DNA from: Candidatus Omnitrophota bacterium
GTDB lineage: Bacteria > Omnitrophota > Gorgyraeia > Gygaellales > Profunditerraquicolaceae
Reading direction: 5' to 3'
Assembly: GCA_030691865.1 (NCBI GenBank)
Contig: JAUYDL010000017.1
Span: 8,312-32,311, forward strand
DNA length: 24,000 nucleotides
The position numbers and the translations under genes are program-made. The notes under the pieces were generated by a model. That model made no database searches, was not told the origin of the DNA, and was given only the letters and a program-made list of their open reading frames with translations. Shown here one piece after another: positions 5,522 to 21,521 of the stretch. The first letter of the stretch is position 1, and each line of letters opens with the position of its first letter.

Positions 5522-6082
5522 ATGGAAAAGCTAAATCCTGCGGAATTAAAAGTTAGATTATTCAATTTATTAAACCAAGAGGCCTTAAAAAGAGGTAAAT
5601 TCCTGCTTTCTTCCGGCAAAGAAAGTAATTATTATCTTGACGGCCGCGTAATTACTCTGAGCCCGCAAGGCGCCTATTTAGTTGCCAGTATAATTCTGGA
5701 TATGCTTAAAGGTGAAATTTTAGATGCAATCGGCGGACCAACCTTAGGGGCTGATCCCATTGTCGGAGCCCTGGCGGCATTAAGCTATATCAATAGGCAG
5801 CCGATTAAAACTTTCATTGTGCGTAAACAGGCCAAGGAGCATGGAACGCTGCAGCGAGTAGAGGGTCCGGCACTGAAAAATGGCGATCGGGTAATCCTGG
5901 TAGATGATGTAGCTACCAGCGGTAAGGCGATTCTGGAAGCCAAACAGGCTTTGGACAAAATCGGGGTAATCGCCGAAAAGGCAATTGTGATTGTGGACCG
6001 CAACCAGGGCGCTGCAGATAATTTAGCCAAAGTAGGTGTAAAGTTAGTATCAATTTTTAAGATCGCAGATTTCGGTCTTTAG
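5522..6082 (+). CDS. pyrE: orotate phosphoribosyltransferase
   Basis: GKFLLSSGKESNYYLDGR and the PRPP motif RVILVDDVATSGKA match PyrE. The start is placed at ATG 5522 (MEKLN...). The track start at 5486 is a TTG that coincides with the -35 hexamer. Confidence 0.85.
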   Translation: MEKLNPAELKVRLFNLLNQEALKRGKFLLSSGKESNYYLDGRVITLSPQGAYLVASIILDMLKGEILDAIGGPTLGADPIVGALAALSYINRQPIKTFIVRKQAKEHGTLQRVEGPALKNGDRVILVDDVATSGKAILEAKQALDKIGVIAEKAIVIVDRNQGAADNLAKVGVKLVSIFKIADFGL

Positions 6083-6090
6083 ATATCTTC

Positions 6091-7335
6091 GTGGAAAAAA
6101 TAAAAATTGTGGTAGTGGGCGGGGGGCCATCAGGTATGATGGCGGCAATCCGGGCGCAAGTTCTTGGCCAGGAGGTAATCCTGCTGGAAAAAAAGAGCAC
6201 TCTGGGTAACAAACTTCTCCTAAGCGGCAAAGGCCGCTGTAATCTTACCAATACAGAAGATCTTCCTAATTTTCTAAAACGTTTTTCTAAAAATGGCGAT
6301 TTCTTAAGGGATGCCTTTAAGAAATTCTTTAATCAAGAGTTGATCTCTTTTTTCGAGCAGCGGGGTTTAAAGCTGAAAATTGAACGTCAACTGCGTGTAT
6401 TTCCGCAGAGCGATCGATCGGCCGGTATTCTTAATTTATTAGAAAATGAGCTGGTTAAGGTTGGAGTGCAGGTTATTTGCCGGAGTAAGGTTGTGGATTT
6501 AATTGTTTCCGGTGGCCGGGCTAAAGGAGTGCGTTTGGAGAATGGACAAAATATTCTCTGCGACCGGGTTATTTTAGCTTCCGGAGGCGCAAGCTATAGC
6601 TTTACTGGCTCTGACGCTTCGGGGATAAATATTGCTAAAAGACTGGGGCATGTAATCGTATCTTTGCAGGCAGGTTTAATCCCGCTGGATGTGAAACAAA
6701 ATTATGTCAAAAAGTTAGAAGGGTTAACTTTACGTAATATTAAGCTTAAATTTTCTGACGCAAAACGGGAGATTATCTCTGAGATCGGCGAATTGATTTT
6801 TACCTCAAGCGGAATATCCGGGCCGCTGGTCATTACTTTAAGCGGTAAAGTCATAGATTTGTTGGCACCGAATAAAACCGTTTTTGTAGATATAGATTTA
6901 AAGCCCGCTCTATCGATTCAACAGTTGGACGCCCGTCTGCTTAGGGAGTTTAAATTAAATTCCAAAAAAAGCATTAAGAATATGCTTAAAGAGTTATTAC
7001 CTTTACGCTTAATTATGGTTTTTACCGATGCCGCCGGAATTGATCCGCTAAAAAAATGCAGCCAGATTACGCAAAAGGAAAGGGAAAAGATTATTTCTTT
7101 ACTTAAAGGTTTTCATTTGGAGATCTCCGGGCCCCGGCCGATTGAAGAGGGGATGGTTACCCGGGGCGGGGTAAGTTTAAAACAGATCGATCCGCGCACG
7201 ATGGAGTCGCGCCTGGTTAAAGGCCTATATTTTTGCGGGGAGATGATTGATGTGGATGCGGATACCGGAGGATTTAACCTTCAGGCAGCTTTCTCAACCG
7301 GGTATCTAGCCGGAGAAAGCGCGGCATTAAGTTAA
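6091..7335 (+). CDS. NAD(P)/FAD-dependent oxidoreductase, HI0933/YhiN (BaiN-like) flavoprotein family
   Basis: 414 aa ORF with a GTG start. The Rossmann motif VVVGGGPSGMMAA, the GKGRCNLTN block and the C-terminal GGFNLQAAFSTG are typical of the HI0933-like family. Confidence 0.8.
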   Translation: MEKIKIVVVGGGPSGMMAAIRAQVLGQEVILLEKKSTLGNKLLLSGKGRCNLTNTEDLPNFLKRFSKNGDFLRDAFKKFFNQELISFFEQRGLKLKIERQLRVFPQSDRSAGILNLLENELVKVGVQVICRSKVVDLIVSGGRAKGVRLENGQNILCDRVILASGGASYSFTGSDASGINIAKRLGHVIVSLQAGLIPLDVKQNYVKKLEGLTLRNIKLKFSDAKREIISEIGELIFTSSGISGPLVITLSGKVIDLLAPNKTVFVDIDLKPALSIQQLDARLLREFKLNSKKSIKNMLKELLPLRLIMVFTDAAGIDPLKKCSQITQKEREKIISLLKGFHLEISGPRPIEEGMVTRGGVSLKQIDPRTMESRLVKGLYFCGEMIDVDADTGGFNLQAAFSTGYLAGESAALS

Positions 7336-7441
7336 CGATACGGGTAATAAGTCTTGATTCGTGGATCCTGTCTTGGGTATTTTCTAGCGCTGACGCGCTT
7401 CGAAAACACCCAAGCCACCCACGAAATAGCTAAAAACCCTT

Positions 7442-8782
7442 ATGGAAAAAATTTACTTAGCCTCCAATTCTAAGGCCAGAAAAAAACTGTTAGAGAAATT
7501 TGGCTTGAAGTTTAAAATCCTGCCTTCTAAAGTTAAAGAGCAGGCCAGGCGCGGTAATTTATCATATTCTCAACTTGTACAGAATAATGCCCGGAATAAG
7601 GCTGAAAGAGCGGCCGCCAGGGTACCCGATGGAATTATTATTGCCGCAGATACTATTTGCGTGCAGGATGGTAAGATATTCGGCAAGCCGAAAAATATAC
7701 CAGATGCCCGTCGGATGCTTAGGCAGTTATCCAGTAAGCCGCAATGGCTTTATACCGGCCTGGCAGTAATAAAAAAAGCTAAGGGTAAACAGAGGCTAGC
7801 GCTGGATTATGAAAAAACAAAAGTGTATATGGATAAATTAAGCTTCGGCCAGATTAATAATTATTTTAAACAGGTTTCTCCTTTGGATAAGGCAGGGAGT
7901 TTTGATATTCAGGGTAAAGGGGCATTTTTTATTAAGAGAATTGACGGCTGTTTCTATAATGTGGTCGGCTTGCCTTTAAGAAAGCTTTATCGTATTTTTA
8001 GGAAGCTGGGGTTATTTCTTATGATCTGTGCTATTTTTGGCCTGGCGGGTTGTTCCACGGAATATAATTTGGCCACTAAACAGGAGGAAAAATATTATTA
8101 TAGTACAGATCAAGAGGTACAGATGGGCCAGTCAATTAACCAGAGGGTAGAAAAAGAATTGAAATTCTCCGCTGACCCTTTGCAGCAAAAACGCGTGGAA
8201 GATATCGGTAAAAAAATAGCCGCAGTCAGCGACAGAAAAGAGATTGATTACCATTTTCGGGTTTTAGATGATGATGAGATTAATGCCGTGTCTTTACCCG
8301 GAGGCTATGTCTATGTCAATAGCGGATTATTAGATAAAGTTGCTAATGATGATGAGTTGGCTTGTATTTTAGCGCACGAAGTAAGCCATATTGTTGCCCG
8401 GCATAGTATCAAGAAGCTTCAAGCGATGCAAAGCTACTCTATTTTAAGAGTATTAGTGGCTGTCGCTCCGGGCACCTCAGAAGTAAGTAATGCCGCGGAT
8501 GCTGCCTTTGCTCAATTTCTGCTTGGTTATGGCCGCCAAGATGAGTTATTGGCAGACCAACTGGGGACGCGTTACGCTAAGTTGGCGGGTTATGATCCGC
8601 ATGGTATGGTTACTTTTTTAATTAAGCTGCAGGATATAAACCGCAGGATGCCGCTTAGGGAGCGCTCATACTATAAGACTCACCCCTATGTTCCTGATCG
8701 GATCAGGGTGGTTAAACAGGAGCTGGGAGAGCAAATTGATTTCGGAGACTATATTAATATTGAACAAGAAACTCATGAATAA
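7442..8782 (+). CDS. Maf-like nucleoside triphosphate pyrophosphatase domain continuous in frame with an M48 (HExxH) metallopeptidase domain
   Basis: Residues 1-190 resemble Maf (ASNSKARKKLL, DKAGSFDIQG, YNVVGLP). Residues 190-204 form a hydrophobic segment with a lipobox-like LAGC. Residues 205-446 carry HEVSH (8375-8389) plus a downstream Glu region typical of M48/BepA-like peptidases. No stop codon separates the two parts. Confidence 0.7.
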   Translation: MEKIYLASNSKARKKLLEKFGLKFKILPSKVKEQARRGNLSYSQLVQNNARNKAERAAARVPDGIIIAADTICVQDGKIFGKPKNIPDARRMLRQLSSKPQWLYTGLAVIKKAKGKQRLALDYEKTKVYMDKLSFGQINNYFKQVSPLDKAGSFDIQGKGAFFIKRIDGCFYNVVGLPLRKLYRIFRKLGLFLMICAIFGLAGCSTEYNLATKQEEKYYYSTDQEVQMGQSINQRVEKELKFSADPLQQKRVEDIGKKIAAVSDRKEIDYHFRVLDDDEINAVSLPGGYVYVNSGLLDKVANDDELACILAHEVSHIVARHSIKKLQAMQSYSILRVLVAVAPGTSEVSNAADAAFAQFLLGYGRQDELLADQLGTRYAKLAGYDPHGMVTFLIKLQDINRRMPLRERSYYKTHPYVPDRIRVVKQELGEQIDFGDYINIEQETHE

Positions 8783-11572: not shown

Positions 11573-11978
11573 GGGGGTGAAAGGGTTCGACTTAAGATAT
11601 GTCGGATAAGAGCAGCATGCCGCGGATGTAAGGTTAGCCGCGTTAACAACCCTTACACAATTTAAACGCAAACACGCAAGTGTCACGTTTAGGAACATTA
11701 GTTGCGCCGTCTTTTGCGGCTAGACCAATGTTCGTACCAGCCTTCGGACTTAATTAAGTCCGAAGCCCCTAACTGTCCTGCCTACGGGATAGATTAGGGC
11801 ACTAGTAGGATAGTCCCGGCGGTTAACCTTCCAAACCGGGGCGAAATCGAAAAGGCTGCGCTTTGCAAATCCTGCCGGGTAGGAGTTGCAGGGCTAAGAA
11901 TAAATTACCAGGCTAAGCATGTAGCGGCTTTTATGCGATTACTTAAGGACTCCGGTCCAATTCCGGACACCTCCACCA
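11573..11978 (+). ncRNA. ssrA: tmRNA (SsrA)
   Basis: The 5' end GGGGGUGAAAGGGUUCGAC and the 3' end GGACUCCGGUCCAAUUCCGGACACCUCCACCA form a tRNA-Ala-like acceptor with a G3.U70 pair and an encoded CCA. The conserved GCAUGCCG block is present. The candidate tag ORF at 11668-11724 reads GCA AAC ACG ... GCG GCU UAG = ANTQVSRLGTLVAPSFAA. Confidence 0.9.
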
Positions 11979-18710: not shown

Positions 18711-18801
18711 CGGGGCGTGGCTCAGCTTGGCTAGAGCGTCCGCCATTAAGGCGTTGGCGGACGCCCGCCAAAGTATTAGTGGCGGGCGCTTGCTTAGAAT
18801 T
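18711..18801 (+). pseudogene. tRNA-Pro 5'-half pseudo-copy carrying a 50-nt double-hairpin insertion
   Basis: CGGGGCGTGGCTCAGCTTGGCTAGAGCG (18711-18738) and GCTTGCTT (18788-18795) match positions 1-33 of the intact tRNA-Pro at 19048. Between them lie two tandem hairpins, GTCCGCC-N11-GGCGGAC and GCCCGCC-N11-GGCGGGC. There is no T arm and no 3' acceptor strand. Confidence 0.6.
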
Positions 18802-19044
18802 ATGTTTGTTTACGTATTAAGAAGCGAAAAAGATAAAAGTTTTTATATAGGTTCGACCAAGAACATAGAGCAGAGGCTTAATGACCATAATAGAGGTGAA
18901 AGCTTATCTACAAAGTCGAAAAGACCGTGGGTATTAGCTAGAGTTGAAGAATATGATAGTGGTTCTTTGGCGTTAAAACGTGAGAAGTTTCTGAAAAGTG
19001 CTAAAGGTAGGAGGATTTTAAGGAACCTGACCTCTTTTAAATAA
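18802..19044 (+). CDS. small GIY-YIG (URI domain, YhbQ-like) nuclease
   Basis: 80 aa from ATG 18802: MFVYVLRSEKDKSFYIGSTKNIEQRLNDHN... This contains the GIY-YIG signature (YVL ... YIG), a conserved Arg and a downstream Glu (LKREKFLK). The longer track ORF from 18727 reads through the tRNA fragment and was rejected. Confidence 0.8.
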   Translation: MFVYVLRSEKDKSFYIGSTKNIEQRLNDHNRGESLSTKSKRPWVLARVEEYDSGSLALKREKFLKSAKGRRILRNLTSFK

Positions 19045-19138: not shown

Positions 19139-19316
19139 GCGCCTATAGCTCAAATTTAACGAGGCCACAACTTATGGAGCGATAGCGAACATAAGTTGTT
19201 GGCCGAGTTAATCCCGTCATCTGCAAGCGGTGCTTTGGCGTATCGCGCCAAAGTACCGCGAAGCGACTAGATGACGGGAGGATAGTTTAAGATAAGAGAT
19301 AACTTGACAATTTAAT
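19139..19316 (+). pseudogene. tRNA-Arg 5' fragment fused to a truncated copy of the group I intron 5' domain
   Basis: GCGCCTATAGCTCAAAT (19139-19155) matches tRNA-Arg positions 1-17. GAGGCCACAACTTA...TAAGTTGTTGGCCGAGTTAATCCCG (19161-19216) parallels 19357-19416 of the intact intron. A long hairpin follows (19213-19278). No catalytic core motifs are present. Confidence 0.5.
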
Positions 19317-19699
19317 GCGCCTGTAGCTCAAATGGATAGAGCACCTGCCTTTCAATGAGGCCACAACTTAGCGAGCGTAAGCGAGCTAAGTTGTCCGGCC
19401 GAATTGATCCCGAGCCTGCGCAGAAAATTTCGCAAGAAATTTTCAAGCGTTTAGGCAAGGGGCCAACATTGGGAGCCTTCATGGGGAAATTAACCTATGA
19501 AGTGCATGCTGCTAAATCGGTGGACGCCCTAAAGGGCAATACCGAGCTATCTGTAGAGTTTACAGAGAGTGTAGAGACTTTACACAGCAGGGCTGAAATG
19601 CCTAAGATAAAGTCCAGACCGCAACAAGTGTTTTTGGCCGGAGTAATCCGGTGCGGTAAGCTAAGCCGGTTGTTGGCCGTTCGATTCGGCCCAGGCGCA
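19317..19699 (+). tRNA. tRNA-Arg(UCU) interrupted by a group I intron between anticodon positions 34 and 35
   Basis: Exons 19317-19351 and 19661-19699 join to a 74-nt cloverleaf. The acceptor GCGCCUG/CAGGCGC has 7 of 7 pairs. The D arm is GCUC/GAGC and the T arm is GGCCG-UUCGAUU-CGGCC. The anticodon loop is CUUCUAA. The anticodon stem CCUGC/GCCGG has one U.C mismatch. Confidence 0.75.
19352..19660 (+). ncRNA. group I intron (IC3-like, tRNA-type), 309 nt, no recognisable endonuclease ORF
   Basis: The 5' exon ends in U, paired as U.G within a candidate P1 (GCCUU/GAGGC). The J3/4-P4-P5 region reads CUAAAUCGGUG...GCCC-UAAA-GGGC...ACCGAGC (19512-19547). The core motif GUGUAGAGACU (19569-19579), with downstream CCUAAG and AGUCC, is as I recall it in the Azoarcus tRNA-Ile and Anabaena tRNA-Leu introns. 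There is a GNRA-capped hairpin GAAAAUUUC-GCAA-GAAAUUUUC. The terminal nucleotide is G at 19660. Confidence 0.75.
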
Positions 19700-19735
19700 T
19701 TAAATTTATGAAAAAACTAGGCAAAATTTAATTTT

Positions 19736-21062: not shown

Positions 21063-21521
21063 ATGCCGAATCAAAAATGTAAAATTTGCGGTAGTGAATT
21101 TTATATAAAACCTTTTCACGCGAAAAAAGGTTGGGGTAAATATTGTTCTATAAAATGCCGCTCTAAAGCTCAGCGAAACGGGAAATGGGTAAAATGTGTT
21201 AATTGCGGTAAAAAGATTTATAGAACTCCACGTGATTATAGAAAATCAGGAAGCAAAAGATTCTTTTGTTCGGTAAGTTGTCATTGTTCTTGGGAAAATA
21301 AAAATGTTCGTTGTGGTGTTAATTCTCCGAATTGGATAGTAGGGGAAGCCGCTTATCGTGATTTAATGCGTAGACATAAAATACCGTTTAAATGTAATAA
21401 GTGCGGTATTTCTGATAAGCGGGTACTCATAGTCCATCATAAAAATGGAAATCGAAAGAGTAATAATATTGAAAATTTAGAACGGCTTTGTTGTAATTGC
21501 CATGCCATTGCGCATGTGTAA
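21063..21521 (+). CDS. HNH endonuclease with N-terminal zinc-ribbon repeats
   Basis: 152 aa ORF. The repeated CxxC...CxxC units (CKICG...CSIKC; CVNCG...CSVSC; CNKCG) and the C-terminal HNH motif VHHKNGNRKSNNIENLERLCCNCHAIAH are present. Confidence 0.8.
   Translation: MPNQKCKICGSEFYIKPFHAKKGWGKYCSIKCRSKAQRNGKWVKCVNCGKKIYRTPRDYRKSGSKRFFCSVSCHCSWENKNVRCGVNSPNWIVGEAAYRDLMRRHKIPFKCNKCGISDKRVLIVHHKNGNRKSNNIENLERLCCNCHAIAHV

Follow-up and report, generated by a model that had tools for sequence, protein, structure and literature searches.

Interrupted genes for transfer RNA (tRNA) of the tRNA-Arg-TCT kind have been reported from Beggiatoa BOGUAY and Thiomargarita (PMC4853749; the BOGUAY report, MacGregor et al. 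2013, is cited here through that paper only). In the seed alignment of Williams 2020 (bioRxiv 10.1101/2020.01.27.920355), 'Arg.3Ug' denotes a type of intron, and the classical tRNA introns that resemble the one studied here are listed as subgroup IC3. Two further systems are relevant: the tRNA-fMet intron of Synechocystis PCC 6803 encodes the PD-(D/E)XK homing endonuclease I-Ssp6803I (Bonocora & Shub 2001, via PMC3984707), and dsrA, a protein gene of Thiomargarita, contains a group I intron of subgroup IA2 with, in P9, a miniature inverted-repeat transposable element, or MITE (Flood et al. 2016, PMC4853749). Here, we describe an intron in a 24-kb stretch of DNA, below called the window, from the metagenome-assembled genome of a Candidatus Omnitrophota bacterium (GCA_030691865.1, contig JAUYDL010000017.1, 8,312-32,311 forward). 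We assign a probability of about 85% to the reading that window positions 19352-19660 are a group I intron that splits a tRNA-Arg(UCU) gene between U34 and C35, and that it is of the bacterial tRNA anticodon-loop type (IC3-like; class Arg.3Ug). This reading follows from the identity of the exons with intron-less alleles, from matches to a profile and a covariance model, and from covariation in eight helices.

The 5' exon (19317-19351) holds tRNA nucleotides (nt) 1-34 and ends with U34, while the 3' exon (19661-19699) holds nt 35-73 and starts with C35; these and all other features below are on the + strand. When 19317-19351 and 19661-19699 are joined they form a 74-nt sequence that ARAGORN calls as tRNA-Arg(tct), with a perfect acceptor stem (GCGCCUG/CAGGCGC) and the anticodon loop CUUCUAA, as had been proposed in a first-pass annotation made from the sequence alone. 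In the raw DNA at 19317-19699 no tRNA is called by ARAGORN. In its intron mode the program finds a split gene (19316-19700) and forces a 37/38-type intron on it; the resulting tRNA-SeC(tca) call is implausible and was rejected. The 383-nt region 19317-19699 folds with z = -9.6 versus shuffles.

For comparison we used contigs (numbered L001 and so on) encoding homologues of the DUF748 protein found beside the window tRNA-Arg, with identities from 83-87% down to 72%. To an NCBI protein from Omnitrophota the window DUF748 protein is 100% identical. The gene order common to these loci is fumarase, RNase PH, Ham1, tRNA-Pro, tRNA-Arg, DUF748 and tRNA-His. In 11 syntenic loci of related Omnitrophota an uninterrupted tRNA-Arg(TCT) is present between tRNA-Pro and the DUF748 gene, and in one of them, L007, this gene is identical to the joined exons of the window at 74/74 nt; the DUF748 proteins of the two genomes are 83% identical. 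The junction between CCUGCCUU and CUAAGCCGG (U34/C35) is therefore fixed independently of intron models. At two other loci, L001 and L011, the tRNA-Arg is not detectable and a 641-642-nt insert is found at the same site, with an open reading frame (ORF) for a 151-aa PDDEXK_5 protein. The joined tRNA has a U29.C41 mismatch in its anticodon stem, which had been listed as a caveat. The mismatch is real, but it is kept in 7/7 of the relatives' tRNA-Arg copies compared and is therefore a trait of the lineage rather than an error of reconstruction.

The intron itself is the only match in the window to two independent intron models. The first is an nhmmer profile made from 24 of the 26 sequences in the Williams 2020 seed alignment, i.e. 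published introns of bacterial tRNA and transfer-messenger RNA (tmRNA), re-aligned with MAFFT. It gives a single match, at 19467-19642 (+), with E=3.5e-10. The second is a covariance model built from 14 gammaproteobacterial tRNA-Arg(UCU) introns only, that of L038 among them. Its match at 19472-19660 spans the full model (positions 1-203 of 203), scores 114.2 bits (E=4.7e-35) and ends at G19660; the second-best match in the window has E=0.43. Together with the exon identity and the covariation described below, these matches bear out the earlier proposal of a group I intron at U34/C35.

The position at 34/35 agrees with class Arg.3Ug in all respects that define it: the host is tRNA-Arg(UCU), the insertion follows anticodon-loop position 3, U is at -1 and G at omega. 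The profile that detects the window intron includes classical IC3 introns, and the suggested relationship to bacterial tRNA introns of this type is supported. With subgroup IC3 as such the intron is only consistent: it has a small basic form, without P5abc or P2.1, and GNRA loops in P9b. The 309 nt contain no endonuclease ORF, and no ORF in the intron has a domain according to Pfam. A 118-aa ORF at 19355-19711 matches no Pfam family and is broken by 1-nt indels in L037, so we regard it as spurious.

The secondary structure was assessed in an alignment of 24 introns, 6 from Omnitrophota and 18 from Gammaproteobacteria. In the assigned helices P2-P9, 96.4% of the cells are paired, compared with 32-44% in controls whose pairing partners are shifted by 1-3 columns. 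Changes on both sides are seen in 26/45 pairs, and the covariation score is higher than in every one of 500 shuffles. Eight helices are supported by this test. P2 (19477-85/19494-502) has 8/9 pairs changed on both sides and 97.7% of cells paired. P3 (19507-11/19585-89), with 5/6 pairs compensatory, encloses P4, P5, P6, P6a and the 5' strand of P7. An initial register of P3, CUGCU/AGCAG (19509-13/19586-90), gave way to the present one, a homologue of P3 in the gammaproteobacterial introns that leaves 4 pairs for P8. P4 (19517-22/19540-45) is 98.6% paired, while P6 (19546-48/19568-70) and P8 (19590-93/19600-03) are both 100% paired, with 2 and 3 compensatory pairs, respectively. P5, GCCC-UAAA-GGGC (19526-29/19534-37), and P6a (19550-55/19561-66) are outside the cross-phylum test, as their loops do not align between phyla; they are read from the window sequence and its close relatives only.

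The guanosine-binding site is in the P7 pseudoknot, where G19574 and 19576-80 pair with 19610-14 and C19615 around a bulged A19575; all of its cells are paired (100%), and of its pairs 5 are invariant and 1 is compensatory. P7 encloses P8 and J8/7, AAGAUA (19604-09). The P7 and J8/7 sequences agree with the R/S core of the Williams 2020 alignment. In P9 (19618-23/19652-57) the hairpin P9b (19638-42/19647-51) has a GUAA loop (19643-46) and 4/5 pairs compensatory. The terminal omega-G is G19660, given by the junction in the intron-less alleles and by the end of the covariance-model alignment. The 3' end GGUAAG also occurs in several introns of the Williams 2020 alignment; as GGTAAG was part of the pattern that chose the relatives, these are not independent evidence for omega-G. 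In general, then, the J3/4-P4-P5 region, the GUAGAGACU / AAGAUAAAGUCC core (P7), the GNRA hairpin and the terminal G of the first-pass annotation fit the structure of the family. Its CCUAAG, compared there with Azoarcus, is here the 3' strand of P8 and J8/7 instead.

P1 was assessed by a separate tally, since MAFFT split its 5' strand inconsistently in the alignment. Among the 53 introns that could be delimited, all 53 have GGAGCC immediately 5' of P2, and the +1 base is C or U in all of them; P1 is therefore CUU, followed across the splice site by a pyrimidine, paired with GGAG. In the window this internal guide sequence, the 3' strand of P1, is at 19472-19475, where the covariance-model match starts, and the motif is invariant in the alignment. 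The pairs are C19349-G19475, U19350-A19474 and the splice-site wobble U19351.G19473, with G19472 opposite the +1 pyrimidine. The distance from the guide to the splice site is 5-33 nt in 51 introns and 119-120 nt in the window and L037.

The long distance is explained by an insert in the P1 loop, 111 nt long (19352-19462), which is a copy of a dispersed palindromic repeat. Its hairpin 1 (19352-19407), in itself a long imperfect palindrome, has a closing stem UCAAU/AUUGA (19352-56/19403-07), tandem GA/GA and then GGCC/GGCC (19359-62/19397-400), and hairpin 2 follows at about 19409-19462. The closing stem and the GGCC pairs covary among eight copies of the repeat. The insert is missing from the 'basic' Omnitrophota introns L076, L022, L043 and L075, which are 192-195 nt long and 88-92% identical to window 19463-19660; it is present in L037.

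Metagenome contigs were scanned with a pattern for the first hairpin, and the repeat is found in at least 120 of them. The listed matches comprise 80 loci with 84 copies, and among these 73/84 copies have no tRNA gene within 500 nt and many copies adjoin gene starts or terminators; some of the contigs have 2-3 of them, arranged in tandem or inverted. With copies in so many unrelated contexts, 19352-19462 represents a palindromic repeat that is dispersed in the manner of MITEs or of repetitive extragenic palindromic (REP) elements. No clear target-site duplication is seen at the copies; the TTTA conserved ahead of ATGAG belongs to the stem of the hairpin. Contigs with 2-3 copies include L137 (11194-11579), L096 (482-780) and L110 (5377-5563), where the copies either follow each other in tandem, about 160-235 nt apart, or form an inverted pair. 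Further, many copies have a second, inverted hairpin-1 module after hairpin 2, forming a composite element with long inverted ends.

A second copy is present in the window itself, at 19148-19289 by a segment profile. It belongs to an upstream relic at 19139-19289, where a 17-nt pseudo-copy of the tRNA-Arg 5' end, GCGCCTATAGCTCAAAT (19139-19155, 16/17 identical and about 160 nt upstream of the real gene), abuts the repeat (19156-19289). By the same segment profile, copies are found upstream of tRNA-Arg in L001, L023, L028 (two), L033 and L061. In L001, L023 and L033 they also follow a pseudo-copy; in L061 and for one copy in L028 the repeat is directly 3' of tRNA-Pro, and the other L028 copy is within a pseudo-tRNA-Arg fragment. 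Fragments of the tRNA-Arg 5' end, 12-24 nt long and split by a hairpin-type repeat, are also seen upstream of tRNA-Arg in L001, L002, L004, L015, L023, L028 and L033. The upstream similarity (19141-19290) could at first be taken for a partial duplication, in tandem, of the 5' exon and intron P1-P2, or for the relic of a second intron type that had reverse-spliced at the same site. Both ideas were dropped, as the shared segment is the dispersed repeat.

A broader proposal would make the insert a member of an undescribed palindromic repeat family, abundant in Omnitrophota-type sediment and groundwater metagenomes and colonising tRNA loci, that within the intron might act as a switch or brake on use of the 5' splice site and hence on the supply of the AGA-reading tRNA. 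The role as a switch is conceivable because the closing stem sequesters intron positions +1 to +5 and GAGGC in the repeat mimics the guide sequence, but we regard the proposal as a long shot.

If the intron is active, splicing would proceed as follows. The pre-tRNA would be transcribed, probably together with tRNA-Pro, and the intron would fold into P3-P9. The exon end CUU would pair with the guide GGAG (19472-75), so that the U19351.G19473 wobble would lie where cleavage takes place. The first attack, after U19351, would come from a free guanosine docked in P7 at the G19576-C19614 pair, beside the bulged A19575. G19660 would then take the same pocket, and attack by the 5' exon after G19660 would give the ligated product ...CCUGCCUU/CUAAGCCGG... 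and restore the UCU anticodon. The repeat would be excised with the intron, which would make the intron a harmless landing place for it. The exon boundaries, the homology, the helices and the identity and dispersal of the repeat are shown by the present data; both self-splicing and the tolerance of the insert are inferred only.

Sequence comparison does argue for activity. L037 has the insert as well, and its comparison with the window gives 92.5% identity for the ribozyme body, only 70.5% for the insert and a single difference, at a D-loop base, in the exons. Further, the exons equal the L007 allele, and AGA is the commonest Arg codon in the window ORFs (79/344). These findings favour the view that the exons and the catalytic core have remained under selection, and thus that the intron is spliced.

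Several observations weigh against the reading of 19352-19660 as a group I intron in a working tRNA gene. The Rfam model RF00028 (threshold 50 bits) has no match in the whole window, nor at E<=10 on 901 nt or 333 nt. The P1 loop of about 119 nt is far beyond the family range of 5-33 nt, and the first five intron bases are paired within the repeat hairpin, which leaves P1 the guide sequence and about 3 secure pairs. In addition, GAGGC in the repeat is a decoy able to pair with GCCUU. Finally, only 24 kb of the genome is seen, and a second intact tRNA-Arg(UCU) gene is possible elsewhere.

The first of these points had been named in advance as grounds for rejecting the intron. The match is absent as stated, yet a control on nine homologous tRNA-Arg intron loci shows how little this means: L038 (Halothiobacillus) is the sole one to pass, at 59.1 bits, L001 reaches 27.1 bits, and 7/9 have no match at all. 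Since the model misses 7/9 clear homologues, the missing match is a limit of model sensitivity and uninformative about the sequence. By the account in Williams 2020 the seed of RF00028 is without bacterial sequences, and a bacterial tRNA-intron model recovered 20% more introns.

The remaining points concern activity. Splicing could be slowed or blocked by the sequestered intron start or by the decoy, and with the decoy and the long P1 loop there is real room for it to be impaired. At the extreme, the intron would be dead and the gene a pseudogene: the repeat at the 5' splice site disables P1, the tRNA is left unmatured and another copy elsewhere supplies the function. A loop of 119-120 nt, found in the window and L037 alone (the 51 remaining introns have 5-33 nt), would fit such a loss, as would the sequestered first bases, the decoy and the small part of the genome covered. 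However, the exons match a functional allele without an intron at 100% identity, although the DUF748 proteins encoded next to the two tRNA genes are only 83% identical. The contrast between body and insert in the two genomes that share the insert implies selection on the ribozyme body after the insertion, and all pairs of the catalytic core are intact. AGA being the commonest Arg codon, and the locus carrying a single tRNA-Arg(UCU) in 15/15 of the syntenic relatives inspected, also speak against a dispensable gene. We thus consider a dead intron unlikely and an active one the better reading.

A different fold of the 5' part could also be at work. In the first-pass annotation P1 was GCCUU/GAGGC (19347-51/19357-61) and P2 the GUAA-capped hairpin at 19363-19394, so that the next hairpins would become P2.1 and P2.2. 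This P1 has five pairs, places U19351.G19357 at the same splice site and is present in the minimum-free-energy fold. The whole stretch is, however, missing from the four closest introns, and it belongs to a repeat that is present at unrelated intergenic sites. In addition, GGCC at 19359-62 covaries with 19397-400 at the base of the repeat hairpin, L037 has GAGCG in place of GAGGC with only 3 possible pairs, and the invariant GGAGCC beside the conserved P2 is located at 19472-77. This architecture is therefore improbable as the working one. What survives from it is the exon-terminal U in a U.G pair, with G19473 as its partner; the 3' strand of the proposed P1 and the long-hairpin P2 are both inside the inserted repeat. 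The competition between P1 and P2 for GGC at 19359-19361, raised as a concern at the time, is likewise settled by the covarying GGCC pairs of the repeat.

That the sequence is not a group I intron at all, but a protein-spliced bulge-helix-bulge intron or an inert insertion, is suggested by the missing RF00028 match and can practically be set aside, given the covariance-model and profile matches, the covariation, the position at 34/35 and not 37/38, the implausible tRNA-SeC(tca) from the ARAGORN intron mode, a host that is a bacterium with tmRNA, and a family member (L038) that passes the RF00028 cut-off.

The window intron, then, is a member of a family of group I introns at one tRNA site. The family was searched with a single narrow pattern that runs from the 3' strand of P7 and P9 to the 3' exon, GTCCAGACC N20-50 GGTAAG/CTAAGCCGG, with the slash at the splice site. 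Matches are present in 61 species-representative genomes, of which 47 are Gammaproteobacteria, including the cultured Wenzhouxiangella limi C33. In 52/61 genomes the intron could be delimited at U34/C35 of tRNA-Arg(UCU), giving 53 distinct introns when the window and L011 are included. The idea that a UCU host is novel is thus overturned, by these 61 genomes as well as by the BOGUAY and Thiomargarita reports and the Arg.3Ug class.

Some family members, 631-694 nt long and found in both phyla, encode a PDDEXK_5 protein in the orientation of the intron (E=5e-28 to 2e-38). The protein of L001 matches PDB 2OST, which we take to be I-Ssp6803I, the endonuclease of the tRNA-fMet intron. Endonuclease-driven homing is therefore implied for the family, while the window intron has no such gene. 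Close relatives differ in whether they have an intron at this tRNA-Arg site. Together with the endonuclease-bearing relatives, the empty sites fit a well-known cycle in which introns home, lose their endonuclease and are then lost themselves. In such a history the window intron would be an endonuclease-less member of a family that comes and goes at this site, other members of which have an I-Ssp6803I-like PD-(D/E)XK gene. In the lineage of the window and L037 the 111-nt repeat would then have landed in the P1 loop, lengthening it from 5-33 to about 119 nt.

The endonuclease-bearing introns of L001 (3284-3925) and L011 (3286-3926) resemble that of the window in part. Their P1-3'/P2 and P9 parts are near-identical to window 19477-19505 and 19600-19660, with a compensatory change from CCGGA/UCCGG to CCGAA/UUCGG in P9b, while the P3-P8 core is quite different. 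This hints that intron lineages may have recombined at the tRNA-Arg site.

Other small elements are found around the locus. Degenerate second copies of tRNA-Pro, or 3' fragments of it, are present in L007 (2277-2400), L009 (3800-3916) and L011 (3164-3250), broken by a two-hairpin element, TCCGCC...GGCGGA CCCGCC...GGCGGG, which in L009 is beside a GIY-YIG gene. The cluster of tRNA-Pro and tRNA-Arg thus has the look of an insertion hotspot for small elements. In the window a 105-aa GIY-YIG protein (E=1.9e-17) is encoded at 18727-19044, ending 3 nt before tRNA-Pro; the gene is before tRNA-Pro in L007, after it in L009 and absent in L002, L004 and L012, which suggests a free-standing mobile nuclease gene. 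Between DUF748 and tRNA-His the window has a 152-aa ORF (21063-21521) that resembles HNH_3 only weakly (E=6e-5, short of the Pfam cut-off). L001 and L003 each have an equally long ORF there, but in L004, L007, L009 and L012 tRNA-His comes within about 20 nt after DUF748. Downstream of tRNA-His a serine recombinase gene is found in L004, L012, L013 and L014 (about 5600-7700), with a DUF2924 gene beside it, and in L009 (7921-9203); it is absent in the window. This suggests an integrated element that uses tRNA-His as its attachment site. The window also has a standard one-piece tmRNA gene at 11573-11978 (RF00023, 157.6 bits). The Rfam control search further gave an nhaA-I RNA motif in L001 (6197-6254; RF03057, 45.7 bits, cut-off 37), and weak YrlA matches over tRNA-plus-exon stretches in relatives that we discarded as tRNA-like artefacts.

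Taken as a whole, tRNA-Arg(UCU) is an established and common host of anticodon-loop group I introns, in at least 61 species-level genomes of Gammaproteobacteria and Omnitrophota. Such introns are overlooked by standard annotation. Because ARAGORN and RF00028 both fail on them, genomes like that of the window seem to be without a tRNA that reads AGA. In addition, the gain-and-loss cycle of a mobile intron is seen at this locus in compact form, with empty sites and introns with and without an endonuclease at one position among close relatives. The locus may be the second case of a short dispersed repeat that shelters in a self-splicing intron, with the MITE in Thiomargarita dsrA (PMC4853749) as precedent, and with the repeat at the splice site it is a natural test of how much disruption of P1 is tolerated.

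The closest known systems are the Arg.3Ug introns, such as Rba190.Arg.3Ug in Williams 2020. They have the same host tRNA and the same site, CUU/C...g/CUAA with slashes at the splice sites, and in Rba190.Arg.3Ug the same P1 logic, CUUC/GGAG. They also share with the window the core GUAGAGACU ... AAGnnAnAGUCCAG and the GNRA hairpin of P9. The window copy differs in being from Omnitrophota, in having no endonuclease gene and in the 111-nt repeat in its P1 loop. An Omnitrophota copy with such a repeat is thus of a kind already known, and its unusual feature is only the repeat directly 3' of the 5' splice site.

The classical IC3 introns, i.e. those in tRNA-Leu(UAA) of cyanobacteria and plastids, also at 34/35, and in tRNA-Ile(CAU) of Azoarcus, are like the window intron in their anticodon-loop position and their P3-P9 layout. 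They have in common with the window family a small basic form (about 195 nt) and conserved J3/4-P4, P7 and J8/7 sequences. In contrast to them the window intron is in another host tRNA, is beyond the reach of RF00028 and has a P5 of only 4 pairs with a UAAA loop. With the intron of I-Ssp6803I the connection is through the relatives of the window at the tRNA-Arg site, which encode the PDDEXK_5 protein that matches 2OST; the target tRNA differs, and the window intron lost the gene or never had it. The dsrA intron of Thiomargarita, finally, resembles the window in that a short repeat, also dispersed across intergenic regions, is located within an intron of the self-splicing type. In the window, however, this repeat is palindromic and is in the P1 loop, starting at the first base of a tRNA intron, and not in P9.

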